Positions 15,628-49,156 of a DNA stretch of 64,000 nt are shown here, piece by piece (within the stretch, counting starts at the first letter, position 1; the number at the start of each line of letters is the position of its first letter). This stretch comes from Bacillota bacterium (GTDB lineage Bacteria; Bacillota; Clostridia; Christensenellales; Aristaeellaceae): positions 1,814 through 65,813 of the forward strand of contig JAEYRW010000085.1 of the NCBI GenBank assembly GCA_023435435.1, in the 5' to 3' direction. The notes beneath the pieces are model-generated. The model did not search any database, was not told where the DNA came from, and worked only from the letters and a program-made list of their open reading frames with translations. The translations under genes and the position numbers were made by a program.

Positions 15628-15641
15628 TTAGGAATGCCTAA
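15628..15641. promoter_or_regulatory. TTAG-N6-CTAA palindromic operator, copy 1
   Basis: TTAGGAATGCCTAA, a perfect TTAGG/CCTAA inverted repeat in the 5' leader of the AraC gene. Confidence 0.55.
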
Positions 15642-15686
15642 TGACATGCGGCATTCGACGCACGATGGGAAGGGAGGTGGAACGGC

Positions 15687-16694
15687 ATGATGACACGGCT
15701 TAAGGGCACCGCTTTTGAGGGCATGTGCGTCGACGCCCTTTCTGAGCGGCCGCCTTTTCTCGTTTTGACTGTTCGGGATGCGGTTGGCGAGGGGGAGATG
15801 ATTGTACGGGATGTGCTCGATGGCATTCAGCTGGTTTACAGCAGGCTGAAAATGCGTTCCTGCTATCAGCGCGTGGATGACGAGGCGCTTCGCTTTGCGG
15901 CCATCAACTATTGTGTGGAGGGAAGCTATGCGTGGGAATTGGAAAACGGGCGCCGCGGGCATCTTCGCAAGGGGGAGATGTGCGTTGGATGGCAATGCGA
16001 GCAGGCCATTGTGAATTCCATGCTTCCGTTGGAATTTTATGAAGGAATCACAATACTGATTGATCCGGAGCGCGCCCAGCGCGCACTTGACAAAGCCTTT
16101 CCGGCCGTGCGCATTCCCCTCGAGCGCACGCTCCGGCAATTGTGCGCGGGGCGGGATCTGTTTGTCGCGCGGCCGGGCCTGGCTGCGGAACGGGTCTTCG
16201 CGTCGTTGGCCGACGCGAAAGCGGACGCGTGCAGAGAGCTTTCTCTCCTTAGAGTGATCGAGCTGATGCTGCTTTTGCCGCAATCAGACGCCGAGGTGCG
16301 CTTGTCCGCAATCAAATATCCGCCCATGACGGTGGAAGCCGTCCGATGCCTTTACCATGGTATTTTGCGCGATCCGCTTCAGAAAACGACGATTCCCCGA
16401 CTGTCCCAAAGGTACGGCGTTTGCCAAACGACGCTCAAGGGCTGCTTTAAGGCGGTGTATGGCGTGCCGTTGGGTGAATTTATGCGCCAAAGCAGATTGG
16501 GGGCTGCCGCACGCCTCCTCCACGAGCGGGCCGACCTGAGCGTTTCGGATGTCGCGGCCCTTGCGGGATACGAAAACCCCGGCAAATTCTCCGCGGCTTT
16601 CAAGGCTTTTTCTGGACTTGCGCCCAAGTGTTATCGTTGCGCGATCAAGTGCGGGCGCGACGGTTTGGAGCAAAGCTGCGACTGCGCGGAGTAG
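15687..16694 (+). CDS. AraC-family transcriptional regulator
   Basis: GGGAGG RBS. C-terminal double HTH (LSQRYGVCQTTLKGCFKAVYG ... VSDVAALAGYENPGKFSAAFKAFSGLAPKCYR). Confidence 0.85.
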   Translation: MMTRLKGTAFEGMCVDALSERPPFLVLTVRDAVGEGEMIVRDVLDGIQLVYSRLKMRSCYQRVDDEALRFAAINYCVEGSYAWELENGRRGHLRKGEMCVGWQCEQAIVNSMLPLEFYEGITILIDPERAQRALDKAFPAVRIPLERTLRQLCAGRDLFVARPGLAAERVFASLADAKADACRELSLLRVIELMLLLPQSDAEVRLSAIKYPPMTVEAVRCLYHGILRDPLQKTTIPRLSQRYGVCQTTLKGCFKAVYGVPLGEFMRQSRLGAAARLLHERADLSVSDVAALAGYENPGKFSAAFKAFSGLAPKCYRCAIKCGRDGLEQSCDCAE

Positions 16695-16755
16695 ATGGAA
16701 CCGGCAAACTGTGCTATACTCACACGGGCGGAGAGCTTTTCTTTTTCCCATTAAG

Positions 16756-16769
16756 TTAGGATGTACTAA
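16756..16769. promoter_or_regulatory. TTAG-N6-CTAA operator, copy 2
   Basis: TTAGGATGTACTAA immediately upstream of the RBS of the first ABC gene. Flank CCATTAAGTTAG resembles copies 6 and 7. Confidence 0.5.
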
Positions 16770-16787
16770 TATAAAGGAGGGATTCTC

Positions 16788-20420: not shown

Positions 20421-20750
20421 CTATGGCACGGACATTTCGCACAGAACGGCGACGGCGCAGCGCTCGGCAAGCCGCGGATTCAGCGCGACCGTGCCGGCCA
20501 GCGCCGCTTCGATGGCGCGCCTTTTTTCAAACAACGCCTCCGCGACGCCCATCCCGGCCTCGGTAAAGCTGAAGCGCTTCTTTGCGTCGCGCCAAACGAC
20601 GCCCTTTTCCTCGAGCTGGGTAAGCATTCTGTGCGCGCTGGGCTTTGAGACGCCCATATGCTTCGCAAGCCCCGCCATACTGGGAGAAGATTCCTGACCG
20701 AGCGCATAAACGCCCAACACATATTTGATTTGGGCCTTCGTCAGATCCAT
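20421..20750 (-). CDS. short DtxR/MntR-family metal-dependent regulator homologue (109 aa)
   Basis: Winged-helix region AGLAKHMGVSKPSAHRMLTQLEEKGVV resembles the DtxR/MntR HTH (xSxPSVxxMLxxLxxxGLV). The protein stops early in the metal-binding/dimerisation domain. Confidence 0.7.
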   Translation of the reverse strand: MDLTKAQIKYVLGVYALGQESSPSMAGLAKHMGVSKPSAHRMLTQLEEKGVVWRDAKKRFSFTEAGMGVAEALFEKRRAIEAALAGTVALNPRLAERCAVAVLCEMSVP

Positions 20751-20790
20751 ACGCGTTCCCCATCTCCATACGTTTTTCCATTATACAATG

Positions 20791-20819
20791 ATATTAGCAT
20801 CTCCTAACGAATTTGTCAA
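20791..20819 (-). promoter_or_regulatory. promoter of the DtxR-like gene, overlapped by operator copy 3
   Basis: Minus strand TTGACA, 17 nt spacer, TAATAT. An alternative extended -10 TGTATAAT lies just downstream. Confidence 0.6.
20794..20807. promoter_or_regulatory. TTAG-N6-CTAA operator, copy 3
   Basis: TTAGCATCTCCTAA inside the spacer/-10 of the DtxR-like gene promoter, which suggests autoregulation. Confidence 0.55.
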
Positions 20820-20891: not shown

Positions 20892-20921
20892 TTGACGGGG
20901 CAAAATACAATGCCCTATACT
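20892..20921 (+). promoter_or_regulatory. promoter for the DUF3793-flavodoxin operon
   Basis: TTGACG, 18 nt spacer, TATACT. Confidence 0.5.
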
Positions 20922-21627: not shown

Positions 21628-22035
21628 ATGGCAAAGGTTGCGGTCGTTTACTGGAGCGGAACGGGACATACACAGGCGATGGCGGAGGCGATTGCCAATG
21701 CGGCGGACGCGGCGCTTTTTACGGCGTCCGAATTTTCGGCGGGCAAGATGGATGAATTTGACGCGGTGGCGTTCGGCTGCCCGTCCATGGGCGCGGAGGA
21801 ATTGGAGGACGGCGAATTTCTCCCCATGTTCGAGGACGTGAAGGCGAAACTCGGCGGCAAGAAGATCGCTCTGTTCGGCTCCTACGGCTGGGGCGACGGC
21901 GAATGGATGCGCACCTGGGAGGCGGATTGCGCGGCGCGGGGCGCGGACATGGCGGCTGAACCCGTCATCTGCTGCGAAGAGCCGGACGCGGACGCCATCG
22001 CGCAATGCGAGGCGTTGGGGAAGGCGCTTACATAA
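21628..22035 (+). CDS. short-chain flavodoxin
   Basis: 135 aa with VAVVYWSGTGHTQAMA (FMN phosphate loop) and LFGSYGWGDGEWM. Confidence 0.9.
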   Translation: MAKVAVVYWSGTGHTQAMAEAIANAADAALFTASEFSAGKMDEFDAVAFGCPSMGAEELEDGEFLPMFEDVKAKLGGKKIALFGSYGWGDGEWMRTWEADCAARGADMAAEPVICCEEPDADAIAQCEALGKALT

Positions 22036-24270: not shown

Positions 24271-24299
24271 TTGACAAACTGGGAGGATTCGGTTATAGT
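24271..24299 (+). promoter_or_regulatory. promoter for chelate importer 2
   Basis: TTGACA, 17 nt spacer, TATAGT. Confidence 0.65.
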
Positions 24300-24337: not shown

Positions 24338-25348
24338 ATGACATTATCCAGATTCAAACGGATTCTGACCCTGCTCACGGCGCTTGCTCTGGTGATCGGC
24401 GTACCCGCGGCCTTTGCGGAGAGCGCCTCCGCGGTGCAGTACCCCCTTACAATTGCCCACGCGTATGGAGAGACGGTTCTTGAGAAAAAGCCCGAACGCG
24501 TCGTGGCCATTTCCTGGGGCAATTTGGATGTGCCGCTGGCGTTGGGCGTGGTGCCCGTCGGCGTTTCGAAGGCGAACTACGGCGTAGGCGAAAACGAGGA
24601 TCTTCTCCCCTGGACCGTGGAAGGCTTCGCGGCGCTGGGTGTTTCGGAACCCGCCGTGTTCGACGATACGGACGGACTGGACTACGAGGCGATCAACGAC
24701 GCGCAGCCCGACGTCATCCTGGCTGCCTATTCTGGCATTACCCGGGAAGAGTACGACATGCTCAGCCAGATCGCGCCCGTGATCGCGTATCCCACCGAGG
24801 CGTGGCAGACGACTTGGCGCGAGATGATCGTCACGGACGCTGCGGGCATGGGCATGGAGGCGGAGGGGGAGGCGCTTGTCGCTTCGCTCGACGCGCTCAT
24901 TGCGGGCAAGGTGAGCGCATATCCGGCTCTGGAGGGCAAGACGGCGGCGTTCTTCTACATCGCACCCACCGATTTCGGCAGCGTTTACATTTACACACTT
25001 GCCGATCCGCGCGCGGCGTATCTTACCGATTTGGGCCTCGGCTTTCCGCAGAGCGTCACCGATCTGATCGCGGATGAGAACAGCTTCGCGGTTCAGGTGA
25101 GCGCGGAAAATCTTGACGGACTCACGGACCTGGATATCATCATCACCTATGGCGACGACGGCCTGCTCGCGGCCATGCAGGCGGATCCGCTTCTTGGCAG
25201 CGTTCCCGCGGTTCAGAACGGGGCGGTGGTCGTGATCGAAAACGGTTCCTATCTCTCCGCCTCCTGCACGCCCAGTGCGCTTTCCATTCCCGCGACGATC
25301 GACGAGTATCTCGCGATGATCGCCTCCGCCGCGGAAAAAGTGAAATGA
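24338..25348 (+). CDS. iron-chelate/B12-type ABC substrate-binding protein (Peripla_BP_2)
   Basis: AAGGAG RBS. Signal peptide MTLSRFKRILTLLTALALVIGVPAAFA, then KPERVVAISWGNLDVPLALGVVPVG typical of FhuD/FepB/BtuF-like proteins. Confidence 0.85.
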   Translation: MTLSRFKRILTLLTALALVIGVPAAFAESASAVQYPLTIAHAYGETVLEKKPERVVAISWGNLDVPLALGVVPVGVSKANYGVGENEDLLPWTVEGFAALGVSEPAVFDDTDGLDYEAINDAQPDVILAAYSGITREEYDMLSQIAPVIAYPTEAWQTTWREMIVTDAAGMGMEAEGEALVASLDALIAGKVSAYPALEGKTAAFFYIAPTDFGSVYIYTLADPRAAYLTDLGLGFPQSVTDLIADENSFAVQVSAENLDGLTDLDIIITYGDDGLLAAMQADPLLGSVPAVQNGAVVVIENGSYLSASCTPSALSIPATIDEYLAMIASAAEKVK

Positions 25349-26343
25349 ACCGGTCGAAAAAGCCCCTGTTGATTCTCGCAAGCCTCGGCGTTCTCGCCGT
25401 CTGCGTGCTCCTGTCCCTGGCGCTGGGCTCGCGGCCCGTCGGGATTGCGGACGTCCTGGGCGCGCTCCGGGACGGGGCGCGCGCGGATTTTACCGCGCTG
25501 GTCGTTCGGGAACGGATTCCCAGAACCATATTCAGCCTGATCGCCGGGGCCTCTCTTGGAGTCTCCGGCCTTCTGATGCAGGCGATTACGCGCAACCCCA
25601 TCGCCGACCCGAGCATCCTGGGCGTAAACATGGGGGCGTCGCTGTTCGTGGTGGCGGGCATCGCGTTTTGGGGCATCGGTGCGATGGGCGAATACATTCT
25701 GCTCGCCCTCCTCGGCGCGGCGCTCACGGCCGCCTTCGTATACGCCATCGCGTCCATGGGCGCGGGCGGCGCGACACCGATCAAGCTGGCACTGGCCGGT
25801 TCCGCCACCAGCGCGGCCCTTTCCTCCCTGGTCAGCGCGCTGGTTCTTCCCCGCACCAGCGTCATGAACACGTTTCGATTCTGGCAGATCGGCAGCGTCA
25901 GCGGCGCCACATGGGAGGCAATCGCGGCCACGCTGCCATTCCTCGCAATCGGCGTCGTTTTTGGATTCCTGCTGGCGCCCGCGCTGAACGCCATGGCCCT
26001 TGGCGACGACGTGGCCGTGGGATTGGGCGTGCGAACGGGACTCGTGCGCACCCTCGGCGCCCTGACCGGCGTCGTTCTGTGCGGCGCGATTACCGCGCTG
26101 GCGGGGCCCATCGGCTTTATCGGGCTGATGGTTCCCCATGCGGCGCGGCTGATTCTGGGCCAGGACATGCGCCTGACCTTGCCCGTGTCCGCCATTGCGG
26201 GCGCGGCACTTCTGACGCTGGCGGACGTGGCCGGGCGGCTGCTCGGGCGGCCCGGCGAATTGGAGGTCGGCATTGTCACCGCGTTTCTGGGCGGGCCGAT
26301 TCTGATCTATATCGCGAAGAAAGCGAGGATGCGCGCGCTATGA
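25345..26343 (+). CDS. FecCD-family permease 1
   Basis: 332 aa, multi-TM, with RNPIADPSILGVNMGAS. ATGA overlaps on both sides. Confidence 0.9.
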   Translation: MNRSKKPLLILASLGVLAVCVLLSLALGSRPVGIADVLGALRDGARADFTALVVRERIPRTIFSLIAGASLGVSGLLMQAITRNPIADPSILGVNMGASLFVVAGIAFWGIGAMGEYILLALLGAALTAAFVYAIASMGAGGATPIKLALAGSATSAALSSLVSALVLPRTSVMNTFRFWQIGSVSGATWEAIAATLPFLAIGVVFGFLLAPALNAMALGDDVAVGLGVRTGLVRTLGALTGVVLCGAITALAGPIGFIGLMVPHAARLILGQDMRLTLPVSAIAGAALLTLADVAGRLLGRPGELEVGIVTAFLGGPILIYIAKKARMRAL

Positions 26344-27371
26344 CGGGAGAGAAAAGCGCCGTTCAGGCGGGCTACGGAAGGCGCAGGCGTCGGCTTAACA
26401 TGACGCTCATTCTGCTTGCCCTGCTCATTTTGTGCCTTTGCTGCGCGATGCTGGTCATGGGAAATACAGTCTACTCCCTGGAAACGGTATACCGTGTTCT
26501 GCGCGGCGAAGCGATCAAGGGCGCGACATACGCGGTCGCGACGCTGCGCCTGCCGCGCATGCTCGCGGGCCTTTTCGCGGGCATGGCGTTTGGCATCGGC
26601 GGCAACACGTTTCAGACCATGCTCCGAAATCCCCTGGCGAGCCCGGACATCATCGGCATCACCACCGGCTCCAGCGCGGCCGCGGTGTTCTGCATCCTCG
26701 TTCTCGGGCTTGGCGGCACGGTGGTCTCGGCCGCTGCCCTTGCGGCGGGCCTTTTCGTCGCCGTGCTCATCTATGCCCTCTCGCGCGGCGGGCGCTTTTC
26801 CGGCGGCAGGCTCATCCTGATCGGCATCGGCGCGCAGGCCATGCTCGGCGCGCTCGTCTCCTACATGCTGCTCAAGGCCTCGGAATATGACGTTGCGAGC
26901 GCGCTGCGCTGGATGCGCGGAAGTCTCAACGGCATGCAAATGAGCGATGTCCGGGCCTTGTCGCTGGCGGTCATCGCATGCGGCACGTGCATCGTCCTTT
27001 TTTCCCGGAAACTGCAAATCCTGGAATTGGGGGAGGAGACGGCAACCACATTGGGTGTCAGGACCGACCGGACGCGCGTGGTTCTCATCGCGAATTCGGT
27101 GTTGCTCATCTCGTTTGCGACCGCGGTGACGGGCCCGGTGGCGTTCGTCTCCTTTCTCGCGGGACCAATCGCCATCTAGCTCGTCGGCGCGGGCATGCCC
27201 TCCACGCTTCCGGCGGCCCTGGTCGGCGCGGCGTTGGTGTTGGCAGCGGATCTGGCCGGACAGTTCGCCCTTCCCTCCCGGTATCCGGTGGGCGTGATTA
27301 CGGGGATTCTCGGGGCGCCGTATCTCGTCTTTTTGCTCATCAAAATCAACCGAAAAGGGGGTGCGGCGTAA
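26340..27371 (+). pseudogene. FecCD-family permease 2, interrupted by an in-frame TAG at 27177-27179
   Basis: RNPLASPDIIGITTGSS motif. Reading continues in the same frame after the TAG (LVGAGMPSTLPAALVGAALVLAADL...ITGILGAPYLVFLLIK), ending at TAA 27369-27371, which overlaps the ATPase ATG. Confidence 0.65.
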
Positions 27372-28186
27372 TGGGCGGATCATTGGCGGCGCGAAACATC
27401 ATCTCTGGCTATGAAAAGAAGGTCGTTGTCAGCGGCGTGAGCATCGCGATCCCCGACGGGAAAATCAGCGTCATCGTCGGCGCGAACGCCTGCGGAAAAT
27501 CGACGCTTCTCAAGACATTTGCGCGGCTCTTGAAACCCATGGCGGGCAGCGTCGTTCTGGACGGGCGGGATATCCATTCCATGCCGACGAAAAAGCTCGC
27601 GCAAAAGCTCGGATTGCTTCCGCAGTCGCCCATCGTCCCGGAAGGAATCGCGGTTTCCGACCTCGTCGCGCGGGGGCGGTTTCCCCATCAAACGTTTCTG
27701 CGCGGCATGGGGAAGGGCGATTACGCGGCGGTGGAGGACGCGCTTAATACCATGGGCATCGCGGAACTCGCGAACCGCAGCGTGGACGAGCTTTCGGGCG
27801 GCCAGCGGCAGCGCGTGTGGATCGCCATGGCGCTTGCGCAGGAGACGGATATCCTTCTCCTGGACGAGCCGACCACATATCTTGACATCACCTATCAGAT
27901 CGAAATTCTGGATTTGCTTGCCGATCTCAACCGCAAACGCGGCGTAACCATCGTGATGGTTCTTCACGACATCAACCTTTCCGCGCGCTACGCCGACCAG
28001 ATCTTCGCGCTTCGCGCGGGGAAACTGCTCGCGCAAGGGATTCCGTCGGAGATCATCACCCCGGAACTCATCCGCGACGTGTTCGGCCTCGAATGCATCG
28101 TCATCAAAGACCCGCTGTCCCATTCTCCGATCATCGTTCCCAAAGCGCGCGGCGCCAAGCATCCAAGGGCCGACGCGATATCTTAG
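27371..28186 (+). CDS. FecE-type ABC ATPase
   Basis: GANACGKSTLLK, LSGGQRQRVWIAMALA, ILLLDEPTT. Confidence 0.9.
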   Translation: MGGSLAARNIISGYEKKVVVSGVSIAIPDGKISVIVGANACGKSTLLKTFARLLKPMAGSVVLDGRDIHSMPTKKLAQKLGLLPQSPIVPEGIAVSDLVARGRFPHQTFLRGMGKGDYAAVEDALNTMGIAELANRSVDELSGGQRQRVWIAMALAQETDILLLDEPTTYLDITYQIEILDLLADLNRKRGVTIVMVLHDINLSARYADQIFALRAGKLLAQGIPSEIITPELIRDVFGLECIVIKDPLSHSPIIVPKARGAKHPRADAIS

Positions 28187-39881: not shown

Positions 39882-39910
39882 TTGACCGCACCGCCGGGAT
39901 TTGATATAAT
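39882..39910 (+). promoter_or_regulatory. strong promoter of nitrogenase-like/importer locus A
   Basis: TTGACC, 17 nt spacer, TATAAT with an extended TG (TGATATAAT). Confidence 0.7.
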
Positions 39911-40009: not shown

Positions 40010-40024
40010 CATATGGAGGGAAGA

Positions 40025-40801
40025 ATGCGCAAGATTGCGATTTACGGAAAGGGTGGCATCGGGAAGTCCACCACGGCCTCGAATCTTTCCGCGGCGCTGG
40101 CCCGGCGGGGGAAGCGGGTCATGCAGGTAGGCTGTGACCCAAAGGCGGATTCTACAAAGACCCTCATGGGCGGACGCCGGATTCCCACCGTACTCGAGCA
40201 AATGCGCAAAAAGGGCGAGGCGCTCGCGCTTCCCGACATCGTGTTCGAGGGCTTCGGCGGTGTTTTGTGCGTCGAATCCGGCGGGCCGACGCCGGGGGTG
40301 GGCTGCGCGGGGCGCGGCATCATTTCGGCGTTTGAAAAGCTCGAAGAGCTGCGCGCGTTTCAGGTTCACAGGCCGGACATCGTGATCTACGATGTTCTGG
40401 GGGACGTCGTGTGCGGGGGCTTCGCGATGCCCATCCGGGAGGGATATGCCCGCGAGGTATTCATCGTGTCATCGGGTGAGATGATGTCTCTCTACGCGGC
40501 GGACAACATCGCCCAAGCGATCCGAAACTTTGGGAAGCGCGGCTACGCCCGGCTCAGCGGCCTCATTTTGAATGCCAAGAACATCGAAAACGAGACGGAG
40601 ATCGTAAAAAAGGCTGCGGAAGAGATCGGCACCGAAATCATCGCCCGCATTCCGCGCTCGGGAGACATCCAGATTGCCGAGGCTGGAGGAGGAACAGTCT
40701 TCGAGCGCGCCAAGGATTCTCCCATGTGCGCCGTCTATGACGCCCTCGCGGGCAGCGTGCTCGCGCGCACCCAGGCGGACGACACTTCATTTACCGCATA
40801 G
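40025..40801 (+). CDS. NifH/BchL-family ATPase with [4Fe-4S] ligands (nitrogenase-like reductase component), copy A
   Basis: [18 protein letters not shown]-loop, CDPKADST switch [10 protein letters not shown] and [15 protein letters not shown] with both cluster cysteines. GGAGGG RBS. Confidence 0.9.
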
Positions 40802-40855
40802 AAGTTTGGCGCGCCACAGGCCGCCAATCCACATAAATGGAAGGAGTTGACCCCC

Positions 40856-41824
40856 ATGCACCACAAATTCACGAGCCTTCTCTCGCTGCTTGCCGCCTTC
40901 TGCTTCCTGACCCTCGGACTGCCCGCCTTCGCGGAATCCGGGACGGTCACCGTCGCTTATCCCGCCAATATGCAGGAGAAGGGCTATACCGAGTCGGTGG
41001 TACTCGACAAGATGCCCGAACGCGTGGTTTCCATCGCCACGACCCCCGTCCTTGCCCTATACAGGCTCGGCGTTTCCATGGTCGGGATTCCCGCCAGCAG
41101 CGTCGTCACATGGCCAGAAGACCTGACCGCAGCGGCAGAGCAGCTCGTGGTGGGCCACGGCTCGAATTTTGACATCGAGACCGTCGTCGCCATGGAGCCG
41201 GATCTGGTGATCATGGGCTACACGAGCCAGGAGACCTACGGCGCCGTGTGCGAGGGCGCGGGCATCCCCGTCTACTACGTGGACGCGGGGCACACCGTCT
41301 CCTACGAGTCCATTAAGCAGCAGACAGAGGCGCTCATCGAAGCCTTCGGCCCGGAAAGCACGGCGGGCGCGGAGGTCATGGCATCCTTCTCCGACCTCGA
41401 AGCGCGCCTTGAGAGCGTGAAGACAGAGTTCACGGGCAAAACCGTCATGGTGCTCCAGTCCAGCCCCCCCGACCATTACATTCAGACCGCAGGCGGCACC
41501 CTCGGCTCCATGGCCGAGATGCTCGGTTTTACAAACGTCTACGAAAACGCCGAGACCTCGATGGTGCTCGTGGATTACGAGCAAGCCATCGGCTACGATC
41601 CCGATCTCGTGCTGGCCGTTGGCGCAAGCGCCACCGGCGAGGAGCATCGTACGCTTATGGAGACGGATTTCAAAAACAATCCCGACTACTGGAACAGCAT
41701 TCCCGCCATCGCGCGCGGCGACATCATTTACCTGCCCGTTTCCTATGTTGCCAGTGCGGGCATCAACGTCATCGACAACATCAACGCCCTCATCGACACG
41801 ATTGGGGCGCATTACGCCAAATAA
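40856..41824 (+). CDS. iron-chelate/B12-type ABC substrate-binding protein (Peripla_BP_2), locus A
   Basis: GGAAGGAG RBS. Signal peptide ...LLSLLAAFCFLTLGLPAFA, then PERVVSIATTPVLALYRLGV. Confidence 0.85.
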   Translation: MHHKFTSLLSLLAAFCFLTLGLPAFAESGTVTVAYPANMQEKGYTESVVLDKMPERVVSIATTPVLALYRLGVSMVGIPASSVVTWPEDLTAAAEQLVVGHGSNFDIETVVAMEPDLVIMGYTSQETYGAVCEGAGIPVYYVDAGHTVSYESIKQQTEALIEAFGPESTAGAEVMASFSDLEARLESVKTEFTGKTVMVLQSSPPDHYIQTAGGTLGSMAEMLGFTNVYENAETSMVLVDYEQAIGYDPDLVLAVGASATGEEHRTLMETDFKNNPDYWNSIPAIARGDIIYLPVSYVASAGINVIDNINALIDTIGAHYAK

Positions 41825-41825
41825 T

Positions 41826-42845
41826 ATGGCAAAGGCGCAAAAACGCGGCGGCGCCCTGCGGGTGGGCGGCGTATGGCTGATCCTGATCGCACTGCTGGCT
41901 GTCGCCGCGTGCGTCGCGCTCTCCGTGGGCAGCGCGGGGTACTCCGTTCCGGAGATCCTGCGCGCCCTGTTCGGCGGGGAAAAAAGCACGGTCCGGGTGG
42001 TCGTCCTGAATCTCCGCCTTCCTCGGCTGATCCTTTCGGTTCTCATCGGCGCGTCGCTCTCGGCGGCGGGAGCGCTTCTCCAGTCCGTCATGCGCAATCC
42101 CCTTGCCGATCCGGGGATCATCGGCGTCTCGGCGGGGGCGGGCACGGCGGCGACGACCGTGCTTCTCCTCTTTCCGGAGATGACCGGCGCGCTGCCCCTG
42201 TTCGCGTTCGGCGGCGCGGCGCTTGCGTGCGTGCTCATCTACGCCCTCGCGTGGAAGGGCGGCGTGGATCCCGTGCGGATCATACTGTCGGGCGTGGCCA
42301 TCAATTCGGTGCTCGGCGCGTATAATTCACTTTTGCAGCTTCTCAATTCCGACAGTCTCGAGGGTGTGCTGGCGTTCATGAGCGGTTCCCTTTCCGGGCG
42401 GTCCTGGCAGCAGGTGCGCGTGCTGGCGGTGTACGCGGGCATCGGCATCGCCCTGGCCTTTGTGTGTGTCAGGAGCGCGAATACCCTGCAACTGGGGGAT
42501 GAGATGGCCAAGAGCCTGGGCGTAAACGTGAATCTGAGCCGGATTCTGCTCTCCGCCGTGTCGGCGTTTCTCGCGGCGGCGACGGTCTCCGTGGCGGGCA
42601 TGATCGGCTTTGTGGGGCTGGTGGTTCCCCATATCGCGCGCATGCTCGTGGGGTCCGATTACAAGGTAATGCTTCCCACCAGCGTGCTTTTGGGCGCGCT
42701 GGTGCTCATGATCGCGGACACGGCGGGCCGCACCCTCATTCCGGGAATGGAGATCCCCGTCGGCATCGTGATGGCGGCGGCGGGCGGGCCGTTCTTCCTG
42801 TATATGCTCAGAAGGAGTGGTAAAGTCGGTGGAAATCCGGGCTGA
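41826..42845 (+). CDS. FecCD-family permease, locus A
   Basis: MAKAQKRGG... start 1 nt after the binding-protein stop. [17 protein letters not shown] motif; multi-TM. Confidence 0.9.
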   Translation: MAKAQKRGGALRVGGVWLILIALLAVAACVALSVGSAGYSVPEILRALFGGEKSTVRVVVLNLRLPRLILSVLIGASLSAAGALLQSVMRNPLADPGIIGVSAGAGTAATTVLLLFPEMTGALPLFAFGGAALACVLIYALAWKGGVDPVRIILSGVAINSVLGAYNSLLQLLNSDSLEGVLAFMSGSLSGRSWQQVRVLAVYAGIGIALAFVCVRSANTLQLGDEMAKSLGVNVNLSRILLSAVSAFLAAATVSVAGMIGFVGLVVPHIARMLVGSDYKVMLPTSVLLGALVLMIADTAGRTLIPGMEIPVGIVMAAAGGPFFLYMLRRSGKVGGNPG

Positions 42846-43611
42846 AAATCTGGAAATGGCCTACGGCGAATTTGTCGCGGTGGCGCAGATGGACATCAGG
42901 ATTCAAAAGGGGAAGATCACAACGATCATCGGACCCAACGGCTCCGGGAAATCGACGGTCCTAAAGGGCCTCTCGCGCCTTCTTTCGTATCGCGGCGGCG
43001 CGGTGTATCTGGGTGAAAAGGACATGAAGAATTTCGGCGCCAAGGAACTGGCGCGCAGGGTGGCGGTGCTTCCGCAGATTCACGCCGCGCCGCCGGATTT
43101 TCGGGTCAAGGAACTCGTGGGGTACGGGCGCATGCCGCATCAGAGGTGGTATCAGAAAAAGTGCCGCGCCGAGGACGAGGCGGTCATCGACTGGGCCATG
43201 CGCGCGACCGGCGTGTGGCCGCTTCGTGAAAAGTCCATTCGGGAATGCTCCGGCGGCGAATGTCAGCGGGTCTGGATCGCCACGGTTCTCACCCAGCAGC
43301 CGGAATTCCTGTTTCTGGACGAGCCCACGACGTATCTGGACATCGCGCACCAGATGGAGACCATGCGGCTCATCAAAAAGCTCAACCGCGAGGCGGGAAT
43401 GGGTGTGGTGATGGTGCTGCACGATTTGAGCCACGCCCTGGAAGTAAGCGACTGGATTGTGGTCATCAAGGACGGAAAAAAGGCGGGGGAGGGCGTGCCC
43501 GGGGACGTCATCACGCCGGAGATGATGCGCGCGGTCTACGACGTGGACTGCGACATCATTGCCGTGCCCGGTCGGGAAAAGCCCCTCATCGCCTACCGCG
43601 AAATATCATAA
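42829..43611 (+). CDS. FecE-type ABC ATPase, locus A
   Basis: GPNGSGKSTVLK, CSGGECQRVWIATVL, FLFLDEPTT. Start GTG 42829 is preferred (GAAGGAG 11 nt upstream); the track start at 42817 abuts the RBS. Confidence 0.85.
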   Translation: MEIRAENLEMAYGEFVAVAQMDIRIQKGKITTIIGPNGSGKSTVLKGLSRLLSYRGGAVYLGEKDMKNFGAKELARRVAVLPQIHAAPPDFRVKELVGYGRMPHQRWYQKKCRAEDEAVIDWAMRATGVWPLREKSIRECSGGECQRVWIATVLTQQPEFLFLDEPTTYLDIAHQMETMRLIKKLNREAGMGVVMVLHDLSHALEVSDWIVVIKDGKKAGEGVPGDVITPEMMRAVYDVDCDIIAVPGREKPLIAYREIS

Positions 43612-43623
43612 AAGGAGCAAGCC

Positions 43624-44922
43624 ATGGACGGAAAGACGATCGTCGCGCGCCTGAAAAAGCTGCGCGATGTGGAAACCATCCGGGAGGTCAAGACGCTCAC
43701 CGCAGCCATGTTCCCCGGCCCGCACTGTCCCCTCATGGGCGCTGCGATGGCCGTGCGCGGCATACGGGACGGTGTGATTCTGGTCCTGGGGACGGAGGAA
43801 TGTGCGTACTACACCAAGGACATGACGATCCACTCCGGCGAATTCGGCGGACTGGCCGGACGCTGCGTCTCCGTGGTGCTGGACAAAGGGGACGTCACCT
43901 TTGGCTTCCGGGAAAAAGCGGAGGCGGCATTCGGGGAGCTCATGGCCGAGTACGGCCCCAGGGCCGTGTTTCTGACCACCACATGCGTGGTGGAGATCAT
44001 CGGCGAGGACGTGGATGCCCTCGCGGCGCGCATGACCGAAAAGTGGGGGATTCCTGTCATGGCGGTGCATACCGAACACTTCAAGTGCGAAAACCACATT
44101 CCGGGTCTCGCGCGCACAATCTCCGCGTGCTTTGACATAATGGAGTCCCGTCCCCCGGACGGAAGCGTCAATGTGCTCGGGCAGCGCATGGGCGATTTTT
44201 CAAAAACGGAGCTCAGCCGGGTGCTGGGAGAGGCGGGGGCTCGGGTGGGACTGCGGCTCCCCTCCGGCTGTTCCGTGGAGGAAATCAAGGGTGCGGCGGC
44301 CGCCAAAGTCAACGTGGTCGTAAACGAGATCGCCCTGCCCCTCGCGCGGCGGATGGAAGCCGAATTCGGCATCCCGTGGGTGTTCTTCGACCGGTTTGTT
44401 TCGCCGGAGAACATCATGGCCGCATATGAAAGGCTGTTCGCCGCGCTTGCGCTTCCGCTGCCCGACCAATTGAGAGGTCTTTACGCCGCAGCCCGAAAAG
44501 CCCGGGACGGGGCCGCGCGGGCGCTTTCGGGGGTCAAATACATCTACGGCAACACGCCGCTGCGCACCTTTGAATTCAACCGGCTTCTGGTCGAGCTGGG
44601 CATGATTCCCGCGCTCATCCAGACATCCTCCCTCGAGCCGGAGGACAGGGCGGACATTGCCGCGATCCTCGAAAAGAGCGATCCCTACGTCACGAAAACC
44701 GCCAACATCGCGCCTCTCCAGTTTGTTTACGACGAGTTGCAGCCCGACGTCTATTTGGGGCACGAGTTCGCCGCGCGGCTGCGCAAGAAGGGCATCGCCA
44801 TTGCCCATACCGACCGGGCAAGCGGGATGCTTGGCTTTGAGGTTACGGGCTTTGTGCTCGGCGCTCTCGCGGCCGCCGCGCGGGAGGCAAAGGAGTACCG
44901 GAAGGAGGTTTTCGCTTCATGA
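43624..44922 (+). CDS. nitrogenase component-1-type oxidoreductase, NifD/BchN-like subunit, copy A
   Basis: 432 aa, AAGGAG RBS. Three cysteines sit in the canonical cluster-ligand contexts: GPHCPLMGA, LGTEECAYY and TTTCVVEIIGEDVD. Confidence 0.8.
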   Translation: MDGKTIVARLKKLRDVETIREVKTLTAAMFPGPHCPLMGAAMAVRGIRDGVILVLGTEECAYYTKDMTIHSGEFGGLAGRCVSVVLDKGDVTFGFREKAEAAFGELMAEYGPRAVFLTTTCVVEIIGEDVDALAARMTEKWGIPVMAVHTEHFKCENHIPGLARTISACFDIMESRPPDGSVNVLGQRMGDFSKTELSRVLGEAGARVGLRLPSGCSVEEIKGAAAAKVNVVVNEIALPLARRMEAEFGIPWVFFDRFVSPENIMAAYERLFAALALPLPDQLRGLYAAARKARDGAARALSGVKYIYGNTPLRTFEFNRLLVELGMIPALIQTSSLEPEDRADIAAILEKSDPYVTKTANIAPLQFVYDELQPDVYLGHEFAARLRKKGIAIAHTDRASGMLGFEVTGFVLGALAAAAREAKEYRKEVFAS

Positions 44923-46151
44923 GTCTCGTCCGCTATCTGCCCACCCCTTCCGACCGGATGGGTGTCATCTGGAGCCTCCTTTGCGTCGGGGGCGCGGTGG
45001 TCCTGGAATACGGGCCCGCCGGAACCACCCACTACAGCGCGGGCCTGTTCGGCGCCTTGGGCGCGGAGGTGGGCGACAGGCTGTTCACCACGCACATGAC
45101 CGAGGACGACGTTGTGATGGGCGACGTGTCAAAGCTCGAGGCCGCCCTTGTGGAAATCGACCGGGAATACGCGCCAGAGGTGATTTTCGTGGTCGCGTCC
45201 AGCATCTCGGCGGTCATCGGAACCGACCTCAGGGGCGTGTGCGCCTATATGCGGGAAAAGCTCCGCGCCCGGCTGATTCCCATGGATCAGGGCGGCTTCC
45301 GGGGCAACTTCACGCTGGGCCTGCGGGAGAGCTACCGCACGCTGGCCCGGGAACTGGCAAAGCCGGACGCGCCGAAGCTGCCGGGCAGATACAACCTCCT
45401 GGGCGCGTCGGTGGGATCGTATCGCGCGCGGTCGGATGTCTGGGAAATCGAGGATCTGATGCGCCGGGCGTTCGGCATGGAGGCCCATGCGAAACTCTGC
45501 CTGGATACAGATGTAAATGCCATTGAAACCATGGCCGGGGCCGAGGTCAATCTTGCCCTGCGCGCGGAGGCGCTTCCCTGCGCGGAGGAAATGCAAAAAA
45601 GCGGCGGGACGCCTTTCGTGACGGGCGCGCCCTACGGCTATCGCGGCACGCTCGACTGGCTGAACCGGGTTGGCGCGGCCATGGGCAGGGCGGCCGATCC
45701 AGCCCTTGTCCGGGGGATGGAAGCGCAGGCGGCCGAGGCGGCCCGGTACCGGATGTATGGCATGACGCGCCGCGCACACATGCCCGCGGCGGCGATTCTG
45801 GGCGAATACGACCTGGTGGCGGGCCTGTCCACCTTTTTGGATGAGTTGGGCCTGTCAGTGGGGCACAAGATATGTACCCATTCCCTGCGGGATTGGCCGG
45901 AGGCCGGTCCGGAGATCGTCTCCGTAACCGAGGAAAGGGACAGAATCGCCCTTCTGAAGAGGCTGCACCATTTCCTTGTGCTGGCCGACGACGTTTCCGC
46001 GCGCCTTCTTGCCCCGGACAACACATATCTTCGCGTTTCAAACCCGCTGGTGAACGGCGCGCAGATCGCGAACCATATGCCGATCATGGGCCCGCGCGGC
46101 GCGGATTTTATGTTGGAGACCATTGAGACATATTTTCAGTCGCTCTCCTGA
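44919..46151 (+). CDS. nitrogenase component-1-type oxidoreductase, NifK/BchB-like subunit, copy A
   Basis: 410 aa, ATGA overlap with the D-like gene. Alignable by eye to the D-like paralogue (…VVLEYGPAG…, …VVASSISAVIGTDL…), but the ligand cysteines are replaced. Confidence 0.75.
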   Translation: MSLVRYLPTPSDRMGVIWSLLCVGGAVVLEYGPAGTTHYSAGLFGALGAEVGDRLFTTHMTEDDVVMGDVSKLEAALVEIDREYAPEVIFVVASSISAVIGTDLRGVCAYMREKLRARLIPMDQGGFRGNFTLGLRESYRTLARELAKPDAPKLPGRYNLLGASVGSYRARSDVWEIEDLMRRAFGMEAHAKLCLDTDVNAIETMAGAEVNLALRAEALPCAEEMQKSGGTPFVTGAPYGYRGTLDWLNRVGAAMGRAADPALVRGMEAQAAEAARYRMYGMTRRAHMPAAAILGEYDLVAGLSTFLDELGLSVGHKICTHSLRDWPEAGPEIVSVTEERDRIALLKRLHHFLVLADDVSARLLAPDNTYLRVSNPLVNGAQIANHMPIMGPRGADFMLETIETYFQSLS

Positions 46152-46208: not shown

Positions 46209-46990
46209 TCAGAACTCATTCAGGCGTCCTTCCCGGGACAAAGACCACAAAATCATTCCGGCGCTGAGCAGTTGGGCGACCGCGGTGGCCGCCGCCGCGC
46301 CGGGCACGCCCCACCCGAGCGCGAGGTCGAGCGCGATGTTCGCGGCGCCGGAAATGAGGAGCACATAGAAAGCGTCTTGGTGTTTCCCGGCGCGCGCAGG
46401 ATGCCCGCCCCGATGTTGTAGGTCATTAGGGCAACACCGCCCAAATCCTACGCGGGCGGGCGGCTGCATTTCCGCCATCTCGCGCCCGCAGAATTCTTGA
46501 CGTAGCGTTGCTACGCCTTCGCCTCGGCTCCTTGCCTTGGGCGAAAATCCATCGCGGGGCTTTCTCCCGTCATTTCTGCGCCTTGCTCTGAGACCGACAG
46601 CGCGCCGAAGGTAATGCGCACGTAGGCGGGCGTCATGGGCGCGATGTCGTCCGGGACGTTCAGCATGCCTGCGAGGGCGGGCGAGAGCAAAATGCCCAGG
46701 ACGGAAAACAGGAGCCCCGCCGCGAGGGCAAACGTGATCGCCGTGTGCGCCGCCCGCGAAAGCATTTCCCGTTTCTTTGCGCCGTAATGCCGGGCAATCA
46801 AAACACCCGCACCCGCCGAAAAACCCACCCCAAAATTGACCGGCAGCTTTACCGCGACCGCGAAAAACGCATCGTCGCTCCGTCCACCGCCTCCAAGCGC
46901 GTCCGGGAATTGGAAGGGGAGGTGGGCCGGGAACTGGTGACGCGAAAGCACGCCGGTGTCGCCCTTACGCGCCGGCAGAACCATGCTGGA
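46209..46990 (-). pseudogene. decayed MATE-family efflux transporter
   Basis: MATE-like peptide pieces occur in three different minus-strand frames: GVGFSAGAGVLIARHYGAKK...PAYVRITFGAL; ALMTYNIGAGILRAPGNTKT; FYVLLISGAANIALDLALGWGVPGAAAATAVAQ. They are interrupted by unrelated sequence at about 46445-46590, and the C-terminal half is absent. Confidence 0.6.
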
Positions 46991-47320
46991 ATACGAGGAG
47001 CGCATCTCGTCAACTTTCTCTACGAGGCGACGCATGGCTGACTGTTTCCCAAAGGCCAGCAATTTCAGCTGGAATTGGACGTTGCGGCGGACGCGCTTTC
47101 CTATCGCAAAACCGGAAGGTGATACGCGCTTGTGGCTCGGGGCCTCGTCCCGGACGATTTGCAAAAGGGGCTTTTGCGGGAGGTACCAGTGTTGAAGGGG
47201 ACGATCCCACCCGTCGGGTACTTTCGATTGTATCGAAAAAATGGCGCGCGGGAAGGCGCGATACGGGAGTGGCTGTTGCCCGGGGACGAAGCGGAAGGGG
47301 CGACCCCATGAAAATTTAAA

Positions 47321-47334: not shown

Positions 47335-47418
47335 TAAGTTAACCGCCCTCGTGTATAATGGATGCGGCGCAAAACCCGGAAGGCCGTTCCAATAGACATG
47401 CACAGGAGGATCGTGTCC

Positions 47419-48261
47419 ATGATCGCAGATATTGATCGCGTCGCGGATTATTTTGCTCAAAACAATATGACCTTTCTGGATGCCCATGTCATCAGCGTCG
47501 CGCCTGGAAGCGCGCGCCGGAATACGGCGACCGCGCCGGCGGGGCAGGGAATCGTCATTCCTCTTTCCGGCAGCGCCGTATTCACCATGGACGGAACGCC
47601 CTATTTTCTGTCCCCCGGGATGGTCCTGCACGCCCGGCCCGGCGTGTGCCTGAACAAGGAGGTCGTCGGGAAAGAGGCGTGGCGCTATGCGCTGGTGCAC
47701 TATCGCGCCGCCGGTGAGGCGGATGTGCCGGACCTCGCCCATTTCGGCATGCCCGTGGAAGACTCGCCGCGCATTGCCGCGCTTTCCGGCAAACTCAGTG
47801 CGGCGGCGGACGCCGCGGACAGCATGGCGGCGCTGCGGGCAAAATCCCTTTTTCACAACCTGATTGAGGAGCTTCTCCTCTCCGCGATCAGGCGGCGGGA
47901 CGGCGGCGGCGTCATCGGCGAGGCGCTTTCCTACCTTCATGAGAATTACGCGGGTCAGTTTACCGCCGCCGAACTGGCGGCGCGGTTCGGATTGAGCGCC
48001 AAGCGCTTTGCGGCGGTCTTCCAACGGCATACGGGCATGACCCCCGCCTGCTATCTCACCGGACTGCGCATCCGGCAATCAAAGGAACTGCTCAGAACCA
48101 GCGACTGTCCCGTATCCCGCGTGGCGGAGTACGTGGGTTACCAGGATCCCTATTATTACAGCAGACTGTTCAAAAAGATAAGCGGCGTGTCTCCCACGGA
48201 ATTTCGGGCGGCGTCCGCCGAAAATGTCCGCGCAAAATCAGAAATCAACGCACGGGATTAA
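47419..48261 (+). CDS. AraC-family regulator (cupin-like N-domain plus HTH), locus B
   Basis: AGGAGG 8 nt before ATG 47419. C-terminus YLTGLRIRQSKELLRTSDCPVSRVAEYVGYQDPYYYSRLFKKISGVSPTEFR. Confidence 0.85.
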   Translation: MIADIDRVADYFAQNNMTFLDAHVISVAPGSARRNTATAPAGQGIVIPLSGSAVFTMDGTPYFLSPGMVLHARPGVCLNKEVVGKEAWRYALVHYRAAGEADVPDLAHFGMPVEDSPRIAALSGKLSAAADAADSMAALRAKSLFHNLIEELLLSAIRRRDGGGVIGEALSYLHENYAGQFTAAELAARFGLSAKRFAAVFQRHTGMTPACYLTGLRIRQSKELLRTSDCPVSRVAEYVGYQDPYYYSRLFKKISGVSPTEFRAASAENVRAKSEINARD

Positions 48262-48274
48262 AAGGGAGGAGAAA

Positions 48275-49066
48275 ATGGCCATGCACAGCATCGCCACCGC
48301 GAACCTTGCCATCGCCTACGAGGATCACCTCGTGGTAAACGGCCTCGATATGCAAATTCCGCGGGGGGAAATCACCTCGATCATCGGGCCCAACGGCTGC
48401 GGGAAATCCACGGTCCTCAAGGCGGTGGGGCGCATCCTCAAGCCCAGGGGCGGCAGCGTATCCCTCAACGGCAACGACATCCGGACGCTTTCCACCGGCG
48501 AAATCGCCCGCAAAATGGCGATTCTGCCCCAATCCCCGCTGGCGCCCGCGGGACTCACGGTGGGCGAGCTTGTGGGGTACGGCCGCTTCCCGCATCAGAA
48601 GGGGTTTGGAAAACTGAAGCCGGAGGACAGGGAAATCGTCCGCTGGGCATTGGAGGTGACGCGGCTTTCGGAACTGGAGACCTCGTTGGTGGACGCCCTC
48701 TCCGGCGGCCAGCGGCAGCGCGTGTGGATCGCCATGGCGCTGGCGCAGCAGACCGACCTGATTCTGCTGGACGAACCCACGACGTACCTCGACCTCTCTT
48801 ATCAGCTGGAGGTGCTCGAACTGCTCTACCGCCTCAACCGGGAGCAAAATTGCTCCATCGTCATGGTGCTCCACGATCTCAACCTGGCGGCGCGCTTTTC
48901 CGATTACATGATCGCCATCCGGGACGGGGAAATCGTCGGCTGCGGCGCGCCCTCCGAGATCATGACGCCCCGGGTGCTCGAAAAGGTCTTTCAAATCGAC
49001 GCGACCATCGCCACGGAGCCCCGCACGGGCCGCCCCGTCTGCCTGACCTACAACCTTCTGCGCTGA
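48275..49066 (+). CDS. FecE-type ABC ATPase, locus B
   Basis: GGGAGGAG RBS. GPNGCGKSTVLK, LSGGQRQRVWIAMALA, LILLDEPTT. Confidence 0.9.
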   Translation: MAMHSIATANLAIAYEDHLVVNGLDMQIPRGEITSIIGPNGCGKSTVLKAVGRILKPRGGSVSLNGNDIRTLSTGEIARKMAILPQSPLAPAGLTVGELVGYGRFPHQKGFGKLKPEDREIVRWALEVTRLSELETSLVDALSGGQRQRVWIAMALAQQTDLILLDEPTTYLDLSYQLEVLELLYRLNREQNCSIVMVLHDLNLAARFSDYMIAIRDGEIVGCGAPSEIMTPRVLEKVFQIDATIATEPRTGRPVCLTYNLLR

Positions 49067-49142
49067 CGGGAGGGGAAGTCCATCTCCACGCGGAAAAAAA
49101 TCCATTCCATTCCGCCGGGCGATGTGGTACCATGTCCTTGTG

Positions 49143-49156
49143 TTAGGAATGCCTAT
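49143..49156. promoter_or_regulatory. degenerate TTAG-N6-CTAA operator, copy 9
   Basis: TTAGGAATGCCTAT has the same left arm and core as copy 1, with one mismatch in the right arm. Lies just upstream of the RBS of the locus B binding protein. Confidence 0.4.

Follow-up and report, generated by a model that had tools for sequence, protein, structure and literature searches.

A 14-bp palindrome, TTAG-N6-CTAA, recurs in promoters and 5' leaders of a 64,000-nucleotide stretch of DNA (hereafter the window) from a bacterium of the Aristaeellaceae (Bacillota; Clostridia; Christensenellales), namely positions 1,814 to 65,813 of contig JAEYRW010000085.1 in assembly GCA_023435435.1. With a probability of about 0.7, this box serves small DtxR-family regulators without an SH3-like domain as their one-dimer operator, through which they would repress an iron-starvation regulon, and the DtxR-like protein of 109 amino acids (aa) encoded among the boxes is itself a box-controlled, ligand-less paralogue of such regulators and probably not the iron sensor. 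As supported by the evidence below, the boxes join both nitrogenase-like operons of the window with a flavodoxin gene, three chelate-type ATP-binding cassette (ABC) importers, a pair of ABC half-transporters, two AraC-family regulators and the gene of the 109-aa protein. A first-pass annotation of the sequence had already proposed a metal-limitation regulon that includes the nitrogenase-like systems, and this part is strongly supported by conservation across genomes and by the precedent of the streptococcal repressor EqbA; sensing by the 109-aa protein, in contrast, was not established. The box is real and widely conserved and, judged from its sequence, of the DtxR-family repressor-site type; beyond this, we infer that it mediates repression, that iron is the signal in this organism and which kind of protein binds it.

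Seven exact copies of TTAG-N6-CTAA occur in the window (Table 1), compared to 0.08 expected from 100 dinucleotide shuffles of the window, none of which (0/100) reached seven. Together with the only two one-mismatch copies of the window (TTTGGCAAACCTAA and TTAGGAATGCCTAT), these are the nine copies which the first-pass annotation had described as proximal to promoters or ribosome-binding sites, and the description is confirmed: all nine are non-coding and occupy promoters or 5' leaders, with 3 to about 95 nt between the box and the start of the next listed open reading frame (ORF), and they are spread over the stretch from 15.6 to 49.2 kb. The gene map used for this purpose is crude, but the genes called on the source contig confirm it, the window being part of a 113-kb metagenome scaffold. 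As an independent measure, a weight matrix was trained solely on 36 sites from unrelated genomes, taken from the loci of the 109-aa family that are described below. With this matrix, no other site in the window outscores any of the nine listed boxes: their scores range from 22.0 to 7.9, and the next site, at 63709, scores 6.8. Hence, the two imperfect copies at 24307 and 49143 receive independent support, as both are placed among the top nine by a matrix built from foreign sites only. Not a single TTAG-N6-CTAA is found in the roughly 59 kb of coding DNA of the window. Likewise, no box, even with one mismatch, is present in about 18 kb of flanking scaffold (about 10 kb to the left in L022, and window coordinate 51086 to about 71460 in L105).

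Of all alternatives, the one that can be dismissed most firmly is that the copies arose by chance in A+T-rich intergenic DNA or are left over from a repeated mobile sequence. The intergenic DNA of the window is indeed more A+T-rich than its coding DNA, and the two one-mismatch copies alone are not significant, since matches with one mismatch allowed are, as a class, not above chance (nine in total compared to 4.7 expected). However, all seven exact copies fall within about 5.0 kb of non-coding DNA, in which shuffling of the intergenic DNA only gives 0.047 expected copies, the six central bases are different in each copy, and the same arms are found at orthologous promoters in genomes with GC contents of 0.34-0.62. 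The spacing points in the same direction. Counted in the window, the regulator loci and the nitrogenase-like loci, respectively, the arms are found 7, 36 and 106 times with an N6 spacer, compared to 0, 0 and 2 times with N4, 0, 3 and 11 times with N5 and 0, 0 and 1 times with N7, and enrichment is thus confined to the N6 spacer. Intergenic shuffling, recurrence across lineages and spacer specificity already refute the chance explanation, the residual probability of which is vanishingly small. A spike of TTAG-N3-CTAA in the nitrogenase-like loci was also considered as an operator and rejected, as it consists of three coding positions repeated over near-identical gut contigs. The SlyA/MarR-type operator TTAGCAAGCTAA, which is served by a MarR-fold regulator, carries its TTAG and CTAA arms four bases apart; this type was rejected in view of the N4 counts and of the structural comparison described below, in which the first MarR-family structure appears only at rank 49.

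In its extended form the box reads rTTAG-N6-CTAAy, with mostly TTAGG-N4-CCTAA in the window. The boxes are situated over -35 or -10 elements, transcription starts or leaders. Placements within or next to the promoters of boxes 3, 5 and 6, as originally assigned, were recovered by a promoter scanner. For box 8, the overlap with the -35 position of an extended -10 promoter is visible in the sequence, the box ending 19 nt upstream of the extended -10, but this promoter was read by eye and the scanner made no call. Box 7 is followed by a GGAGG ribosome site, and reading of the nifH-like gene starts at an ATG a few codons inside the listed ORF. An extended left flank shared by copies 2, 6 and 7 had been pointed out before and is present. 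In the form CCAT(T/G)(G/A)(A/T)(G/A), with CAAT in one case, this flank is seen on five of the nine boxes (15618-15627, 16746-16755, 20784-20793, 39911-39920 and 39986-39995), while it is absent from the boxes of other lineages, which show gGTTAG...CTAAcc instead. It could represent the half site of a second protein or a start-site context. In agreement with the first-pass annotation, no box was found in the promoters of the cbi operon, the Opp-like operon, the hydantoinase gene or the SulP gene.

The closest experimentally studied counterpart of this arrangement is EqbA, a small (about 125 aa) IdeR/DtxR-like repressor without SH3-like domain from the equibactin locus of ICESe2 in Streptococcus equi (Heather et al. 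2008, PMC3672683). Deletion of eqbA derepresses the equibactin operon, and in electrophoretic mobility shift assays binding of EqbA to the eqbB promoter is raised by Fe2+, Zn2+ and Mn2+ and needs a 36-bp palindrome, AACTATTATTGTTAGATGTATCTAACAATAATAGTT, which its authors called unlike other iron boxes (PMC3672683). The centre of this palindrome is GTTAGATGTATCTAAC, that is GTTAG-N6-CTAAC and, thus, the box of the window; GTTAG/CTAAC arms, six-base gap and promoter overlap are all found here as well. Both systems have in common a small SH3-less repressor type and an operator with the same centre; EqbA represses an iron-acquisition operon, and its binding is raised by Fe2+. They differ in that a single 36-bp extended palindrome precedes a siderophore-synthesis operon in S. 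equi, whereas in the window nine boxes of 14-16 bp precede importers, flavodoxin, regulators and nitrogenase-like operons. Additionally, EqbA displays ligands of the H79/C102/E105/H106 type and matches the metal-binding and dimerisation domain PF02742, neither of which applies to the 109-aa protein of the window. No follow-up on EqbA-type regulons was found in the literature.

The resemblance of the arms to those of the DtxR/IdeR iron box, noted at first sight, is borne out and can be made more precise. The 19-bp iron box of IdeR repeats CCTAA four times and accommodates two dimers that read two repeats each. A single dimer binds to a designed half site, and Ser37 and Pro39 of IdeR contact the thymine of CCTAA (PMC8464063). 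By our own reading of the actinobacterial consensus TTAGGTTAGCCTAACCTAA, it holds two overlapping TTAG-N6-CTAA units offset by 5 bp, and hence TTAGG-N4-CCTAA would correspond to a one-dimer DtxR/IdeR site, or "half" iron box. Arms of TTAGG/CCTAA type and a promoter overlap with the geometry of repression are shared between the two. In contrast to the iron box, however, the window contains the one-dimer unit only, sometimes in tandem 25-75 bp apart and never overlapping, its host is a Firmicute, and its local regulator has two domains, without SH3 domain and without the canonical ligands. A Fur-box reading was considered and rejected, the Fur box being an unrelated A/T-rich 7-1-7 repeat. Regarding gene content, the Fur regulons of Clostridia (C. 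difficile, C. acetobutylicum) are nevertheless alike, since low iron induces feo, importers of the siderophore type and flavodoxin there (PMC6311696), with regulator family and operator being different; the words 'nitrogenase' and 'nifH' give 0 matches in the main text of that study.

Conservation of the box was followed from two starting points, the first of which was the 109-aa protein. A word-index search returned one close homologue (77% identity) and an exhaustive search 141 distant ones (at most 43% identity), mostly of 110-135 aa. A profile scan with a narrower family alignment, using one genome per species, yielded 19 loci, all of them from Clostridia (Oscillospiraceae, Christensenellales and relatives), in which the homologue directly follows feoA-feoA-feoB. 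These 19 loci contain 36 copies of TTAG-N6-CTAA compared to 2.6 expected. The copies are concentrated in the feo promoter and before feoB, where they often follow TTGACA without a gap and form tandems spaced by 25-33 bp, and 12 of the 13 feo loci with enough upstream DNA have a box; no other conserved palindrome is visible in these feo promoters. The 77% homologue is likewise encoded behind feoB and a FeoB-associated small protein. Beyond feo itself, a boxed flavodoxin in L009 is 56% identical to the flavodoxin of the window, and the boxed ABC pairs of L004 and L026 share 58-67% identity with that of the window (65-67% in the feo loci). In some Oscillospiraceae and Christensenellales, the feo locus encodes two DtxR-like genes, as in L003 (6098-6472 on the minus strand and 10001-10414 on the plus strand), L004, L010 and L016. 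Here, the gene divergent from feoA encodes a protein with the ligands and the gene after feoB one without them, with boxes in between, a layout which suggests that both kinds of protein work on the same promoter.

The second starting point was the nifD-like protein, for which homologues with 56-67% identity number in the hundreds. A metagenome scan with it led to 80 loci that were chosen independently of any regulator. They contain 106 boxes compared to 23.6 expected. Loci were counted as informative if they included the nifH-like gene together with about 100 nt or more of DNA in front of it (56 loci), and when their nifD-like proteins were clustered at 85% identity, 15 lineages resulted, the GC contents of which range from 0.34 to 0.61. 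Within 400 nt upstream of the nifH-like gene, an exact box is found in 10 of the 15 lineages, a one-mismatch box in four and none in one; the latter lineage has two boxes 1.9 kb upstream, before the exbB-exbD-tonB genes that precede the operon. The six central bases vary among lineages, while the arms are constant. The closest relatives (L026) have one box before the orthologous ABC pair and one before the nifH-like gene. Gut lineages that are apparently diderm, as they encode TonB-dependent receptors, have a second box between the nifK-like gene and genes for a ChaN-type haem-binding protein and a TonB-dependent receptor. As orthologues elsewhere are boxed too, regulon membership of the nitrogenase-like operon, flavodoxin and ABC pair is conserved and not a peculiarity of the window. 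Some lineages, as seen in L092 (10830-11381) and L028 (12541-13092), have a 183-aa gene directly after the nifK-like gene, the N-terminus of which (MKVQ[IV]IYSSLSGCT...) looks flavodoxin-like by eye; a BLASTP comparison with the window flavodoxin gave no match. A small ORF in L026 with 'SGEDYLETI' was not counted as a DtxR remnant, since its sequence diverges immediately.

With the box thus placed, the question is which protein reads it. The 109-aa protein of the window scores 26.0 bits against PF01325, exactly at the cut-off of 26, and winged-helix models of MarR and IclR score similarly; its relatives P0003, P0006 and P0007 reach 36-39 bits. An AlphaFold2 model of high confidence (mean predicted local distance difference test 94.7) has helices at residues 5-20, 25-32, 36-48, 64-87 and 92-107, and in a Foldseek search of the PDB, ranks 1-48 are all DtxR, IdeR, MntR, SloR or DR2539 structures with template modelling (TM) scores of 0.62-0.86 (best 20: 0.79-0.86, root-mean-square deviation 1.4-3.5 Å). 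According to this model the protein has the DtxR fold, comprising a winged helix-turn-helix, a long helix and the second helix of the dimerisation domain. Its DNA-reading helix, 'VSKPSxHRML', is the most conserved segment of the family and retains in 'VSKPS' the S-x-P of IdeR and DtxR. Hence, the balance tips slightly towards the 109-aa protein binding the same boxes.

The metal site gives a different picture. An alignment with EqbA and DtxR, read by eye, replaces M10 by K9, H79 by R77, C102 by V100, E105 by L103 and H106 by C104, and the remaining ligand positions E83 and H98 correspond to E81 and E96, so that at least four of the seven DtxR ligand positions appear unusable. Among 37 family members, no column of conserved His, Cys, Asp or Glu that could serve as ligand was found, the only invariant or near-invariant columns being Y10, S38, L46, T63 and G66. 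Up to E = 1, PF02742 does not match the 109-aa protein, P0002, P0006 or P0007, and P0003, at 16.7 bits, stays below the cut-off of 27, whereas 42-55 bits are obtained for EqbA, for the L092 regulator and for the upstream regulator of L003. Over the helix-turn-helix EqbA matches the 109-aa protein for 45 residues only, while it is 35-37% identical to the ligand-bearing group. Members of that group encoded next to boxes (in L092 after feoB; in L003, L004, L010 and L016 divergent from feo) match both PF01325 and PF02742. Two subfamilies are, thus, associated with the same box, experimental support exists for the ligand-bearing one only, and this window holds only the ligand-less one. Some members have cysteines in other places: P0006 (L003 10001-10414) carries a cysteine-rich 'YHCCFCCIC' in its long helix, and a Cys-Glu near the C-terminus is semi-conserved in several proteins including that of the window (LCEM). 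A non-canonical cofactor site may exist in the family.

These findings bear directly on the model of the first-pass annotation, in which the adjacent 109-aa protein is itself the metal-sensing repressor of all nine boxes, including the one in its own promoter. Part of it stands, namely the DtxR-like fold and the presence of the family in box-controlled feo operons. Its gene is the only DtxR-family gene in about 82 kb, lies amid the boxes and has a box in its own promoter, its family is associated with boxed feo promoters in which no other conserved palindrome is visible, even the 77% homologue being encoded behind feoB, and the reading helix with its Ser/Pro is preserved. On the other hand, the canonical ligands and PF02742 are missing with no alternative ligand set conserved, the only proven binder is one of the ligand-bearing proteins, and constitutive binding under autoregulation would by itself leave the regulon without signal input. 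As a whole, this model is improbable, and that the 109-aa protein is an iron sensor at all is only slightly less so. With its canonical metal site lost, the protein is less likely a sensor than a co-regulator or feedback brake that acts independently of iron, and the sensor is probably a ligand-bearing protein of the EqbA type encoded outside the DNA that was read.

Alternatively, the 109-aa family might be a FeoC-like accessory of the Feo transporter, which does not bind the box and is a mere target of the regulon. In homologous loci the gene does stand directly after feoB and the FeoB-associated small protein, and the last gene of the feoAABC operon of Faecalibacterium duncaniae, labelled FeoC (PMC10781979), may belong to the 109-aa family. 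Matches to the FeoC model PF09012 are faint and below the cut-off of 21 bits, amounting to 18.6 bits for P0007, 17.1 bits for P0002 and 12.9 bits (E 0.12) for the 109-aa protein itself. Against such a role speak the DtxR-like fold including the dimerisation helices and the strong conservation of the reading helix; moreover, the window gene stands alone with its own promoter and there is no feoB within about 82 kb. This explanation is, hence, considered a good deal less probable again than sensing by the 109-aa protein.

Iron is the most likely signal, because the same box precedes feoAB, the orthologous flavodoxin, the ABC pair and the nitrogenase-like operon in other Firmicutes. A regulon responding to manganese, cobalt, nickel, haem or a chelate instead of iron limitation would be compatible with the existence of manganese sensors in the DtxR family, with the in vitro response of EqbA to Mn2+ and Zn2+, and with the surroundings in the window, where a cobalamin biosynthesis operon lies next door and the importers are of haem, B12 or siderophore type. 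Yet feoAB and flavodoxin form the recurrent core of boxed genes across genomes, and the cbi operon has no box but is governed by a cobalamin riboswitch. Furthermore, in F. duncaniae, which is related to the organisms that carry the feo loci and is a member of the same order, repression of feoAABC by ferrous iron with co-induction of a flavodoxin gene has been measured (PMC10781979). Only a slim chance is therefore left to a signal other than iron.

Under the preferred reading of a one-dimer operator serving an iron-starvation regulon, a metal-loaded DtxR-family dimer would sit on the boxes when iron is plentiful. As the boxes cover the -35/-10, start or leader of nine transcription units, their occupancy should block transcription. 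When iron becomes scarce, the dimer would leave the boxes, and a set comprising the chelate-type ABC importers, the ABC pair and flavodoxin as substitute for ferredoxin would be derepressed. The same set would include two AraC/Btr-like, substrate-specific activators and two nitrogenase-like enzymes, each with its own chelate importer in the operon. The 109-aa paralogue, with a box in its own promoter, would be a member of the regulon as well.

Several points weigh against this reading. No ligand-bearing DtxR-family gene is present in the roughly 82 kb of contig read (window and flanks), so that a separate sensor is hypothetical here, and in 8 of the 12 box-bearing feo loci only the ligand-less paralogue is found within 10 kb, which fits the 109-aa protein as sensor equally well. 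Loci fetched with the regulator are biased towards containing it, and of the 56 informative nitrogenase-like loci, 35 stem from a single gut lineage and are almost duplicates of each other. Finally, the in vitro response of EqbA to Zn2+ and Mn2+ leaves the metal specificity unsettled.

Table 1 Boxes, genes and neighbouring features of the window, with boxed neighbours of the nitrogenase-like operon in other loci (window coordinates unless a locus is named; matrix, score with the matrix from foreign sites)
Feature	Position	Strand	Context and evidence
886-aa protein	11530-14190		riboswitch operon; C-terminus is a chelate binding-protein domain
CbiK chelatase	14061-15179		riboswitch operon; N-terminal extension of ~110 aa
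Cobalamin riboswitch	15202-15401	-	104 bits; ahead of cbi operon
Box 1, TTAGGAATGCCTAA	15628..15641		46 nt upstream of AraC-family gene 1; exact; matrix 11.9
AraC-family regulator 1, 335 aa	15687..16694	+	Pfam HTH_18 (E 1.5e-17); weak NCBIfam similarity to Btr and other AraC activators
Box 2, TTAGGATGTACTAA	16756..16769		19 nt upstream of ABC pair, just before ribosome-binding site; exact; matrix 20.4
Two exporter-fold ABC half-transporters, 605 and 578 aa	16788..20334	+	Pfam ABC_membrane and ABC_tran in each
109-aa DtxR-fold winged-helix protein (P0001)	20421..20750	-	PF01325 at cut-off; AlphaFold2/Foldseek
Box 3, TTAGCATCTCCTAA	20794..20807		inside minus-strand promoter TTGACA-17-TAATAT (20819..20791) of 109-aa gene; exact
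Box 4, TTAGGGTGTACTAA	20971..20984		DUF3793-flavodoxin leader, 50 nt after TTGACG-18-TATACT (20892..20921); exact
DUF3793 gene	21066-21614	+	Pfam DUF3793 (E 3.7e-52)
Short-chain flavodoxin gene	21628-22035	+	Pfam Flavodoxin_1; NCBIfam TIGR01753 124.5 (cut-off 123)
Hydantoinase/oxoprolinase-like gene	22126-24165	-	divergent from boxed importer; no box
Box 5, TTTGGCAAACCTAA	24307..24320		about +1, starts 8 nt after TTGACA-17-TATAGT (24271..24299); one mismatch; matrix 9.3
Chelate-type ABC importer	24338..28186	+	binding protein, two FecCD permeases, ATPase; Pfam Peripla_BP_2, FecCD, ABC_tran
URO-D-like gene	28383-29399	-	convergent with boxed importer; no box
Box 6, TTAGTATTTCCTAA	39921..39934		starts 11 nt after -10 of TTGACC-17-TATAAT (39882..39910); exact; matrix 18.7
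Box 7, TTAGCTCTTACTAA	39996..40009		ends 3 nt before listed nifH-like ORF start 40013; exact; matrix 22.0 (window maximum)
Nitrogenase-like operon 1	40013..46151	+	nifH-like 40013-40801, binding protein 40847-41824, FecCD 41826-42845, ATPase 42817-43611, nifD-like 43624-44922, nifK-like 44919-46151; Pfam Fer4_NifH (E 7.6e-100), Oxidored_nitro twice
Truncated MatE gene	46511-47164	-	between the nitrogenase-like operons
Box 8, TTAGGATACCCTAA	47321..47334		over -35 position of extended -10 TGtTATAAT (47354-47359), ahead of AraC gene 2; exact; matrix 15.9
AraC-family regulator 2	ORF from 47362, likely start 47419, end 48261	+	Pfam HTH_18, HTH_AraC, AraC_binding
ABC ATPase	48224-49066	+	Pfam ABC_tran
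Box 9, TTAGGAATGCCTAT	49143..49156		17 nt upstream of binding-protein gene; one mismatch; matrix 7.9
Nitrogenase-like operon 2	49173..55314	+	behind box 9, starting with the remaining genes of a second importer; binding protein 49173-50150, FecCD 50170-51216 and 51216-52217, nifH-like 52253-52996, nifD-like ORF 53054-54142 (called 53267-54142), nifK-like ORF 54091-55314 (called 54130-55314)
Large serine recombinase	58456-60399		in region of lower GC content
Boxed ChaN/TonB-receptor or exbB-exbD-tonB neighbours of nitrogenase-like operon	L041 12592-15534; L097 510-4120; L051 4535-6443, 12603-14642

The cobalamin riboswitch precedes a minus-strand cbi operon without box, and this operon lies outside the box regulon; it encodes the extended CbiK chelatase, a permease, an ATPase and cbi genes besides the 886-aa protein. 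The URO-D-like gene belongs to the uroporphyrinogen decarboxylase or methyltransferase family. A MatE fragment, minus-strand as in the window, is also found at the equivalent place in the closest related locus (L026 4564-5271), beside the AraC gene and before the nifH-like gene, and the remnant has therefore been kept across species. Over window positions 58000-64000 the GC content falls from about 0.62 to about 0.50, and an HTH_3 gene, the large serine recombinase and then genes without family matches are found; this region, which is present on a separate 10-kb contig of the same sample (L106) as well, looks like an integrated mobile element.

Of the two AraC-family genes, the second one is Btr-like in NCBIfam (E 6.9e-21, below cut-off). 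In bacillibactin uptake of Bacillus subtilis, the global iron repressor Fur is placed above Btr, and AraC-family, substrate-responsive activators are encoded near chelate ABC importers. The arrangement in the window is similar in this respect, but its AraC proteins lack the fused binding-protein domain of Btr, and the global regulator would be DtxR-type instead of Fur.

Regarding the nitrogenase-like enzymes, no subunit scores above a curated NCBIfam cut-off for any named Nif/Vnf/Anf, DPOR, COR or CfbCD family. Scores of the nifH-like protein are 348 with the CfbC model (cut-off 402) and 334 with the NifH model (cut-off 394), the nifH-like protein of the second operon being 64% identical to that of the first, and the nifD-like and nifK-like proteins reach at most 111 bits compared to cut-offs above 260. 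With DPOR, COR and CfbCD, nitrogenase-like enzymes that act on tetrapyrroles, they share the three-component NifH/NifD/NifK-like composition, the nifH-like protein scoring highest on the CfbC and NifH models. Those enzymes are, however, biosynthetic and have no link to importers or iron control, whereas each operon in the window embeds a chelate ABC importer under an iron-type operator. Many groups of nitrogenase-like enzymes are without assigned function, and genomic context has so far been of little help for most of them (2026 review, PMC13474568). Group VI nitrogenase-like paralogues of Elusimicrobia are found in a different, radical-SAM context. No literature was found that links nitrogenase-like enzymes to iron control, haem, siderophores or chelate import.

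In this light, a role in obtaining iron makes most sense for an iron-sulfur-rich, ATP-consuming enzyme which would be induced when iron is scarce. It is tentatively proposed, as a possibility that is clearly below even odds, that the nitrogenase-like enzymes of the window, like those of many Firmicutes from the gut and the environment, are iron-starvation-induced parts of anaerobic iron acquisition, accompanied by ligand-less DtxR paralogues acting on the same operator without metal sensing. The ABC importer of each operon would take up an iron chelate, which may be haem or another metallotetrapyrrole. Flavodoxin would feed the ATP-driven NifH/NifDK-like reductase, which in turn would reduce the ligand and thereby release the iron. 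A haem-like or other chelate substrate is pointed to by the type of importer, with its weakly IsdE-like binding protein, by the boxed ChaN and TonB-receptor neighbours and by the flavodoxin.

The kind of operator and regulator is already known from EqbA and is equivalent to half an iron box. New are the breadth of the box in Firmicutes, the family of ligand-less paralogues inside the regulon and, above all, a conserved iron-starvation operator on an uncharacterised nitrogenase-like enzyme that is coupled to its own chelate importer. In many Firmicutes, including Oscillospiraceae, Christensenellales and human-gut lineages, some of them apparently diderm, iron control thus apparently proceeds, instead of or beside Fur, through a one-dimer DtxR-type box, of which a single example, from a mobile element of a streptococcus, has been tested by experiment. 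Given its short length and its specificity, the box suffices for predicting regulons directly from metagenomes, and its conservation in 14 of 15 lineages points the nitrogenase-like enzyme to iron starvation and chelate import. If true, oxygen-free extraction of iron from haem-like compounds would be a chemistry new to the nitrogenase superfamily, and it would give gut anaerobes a new way to acquire iron.

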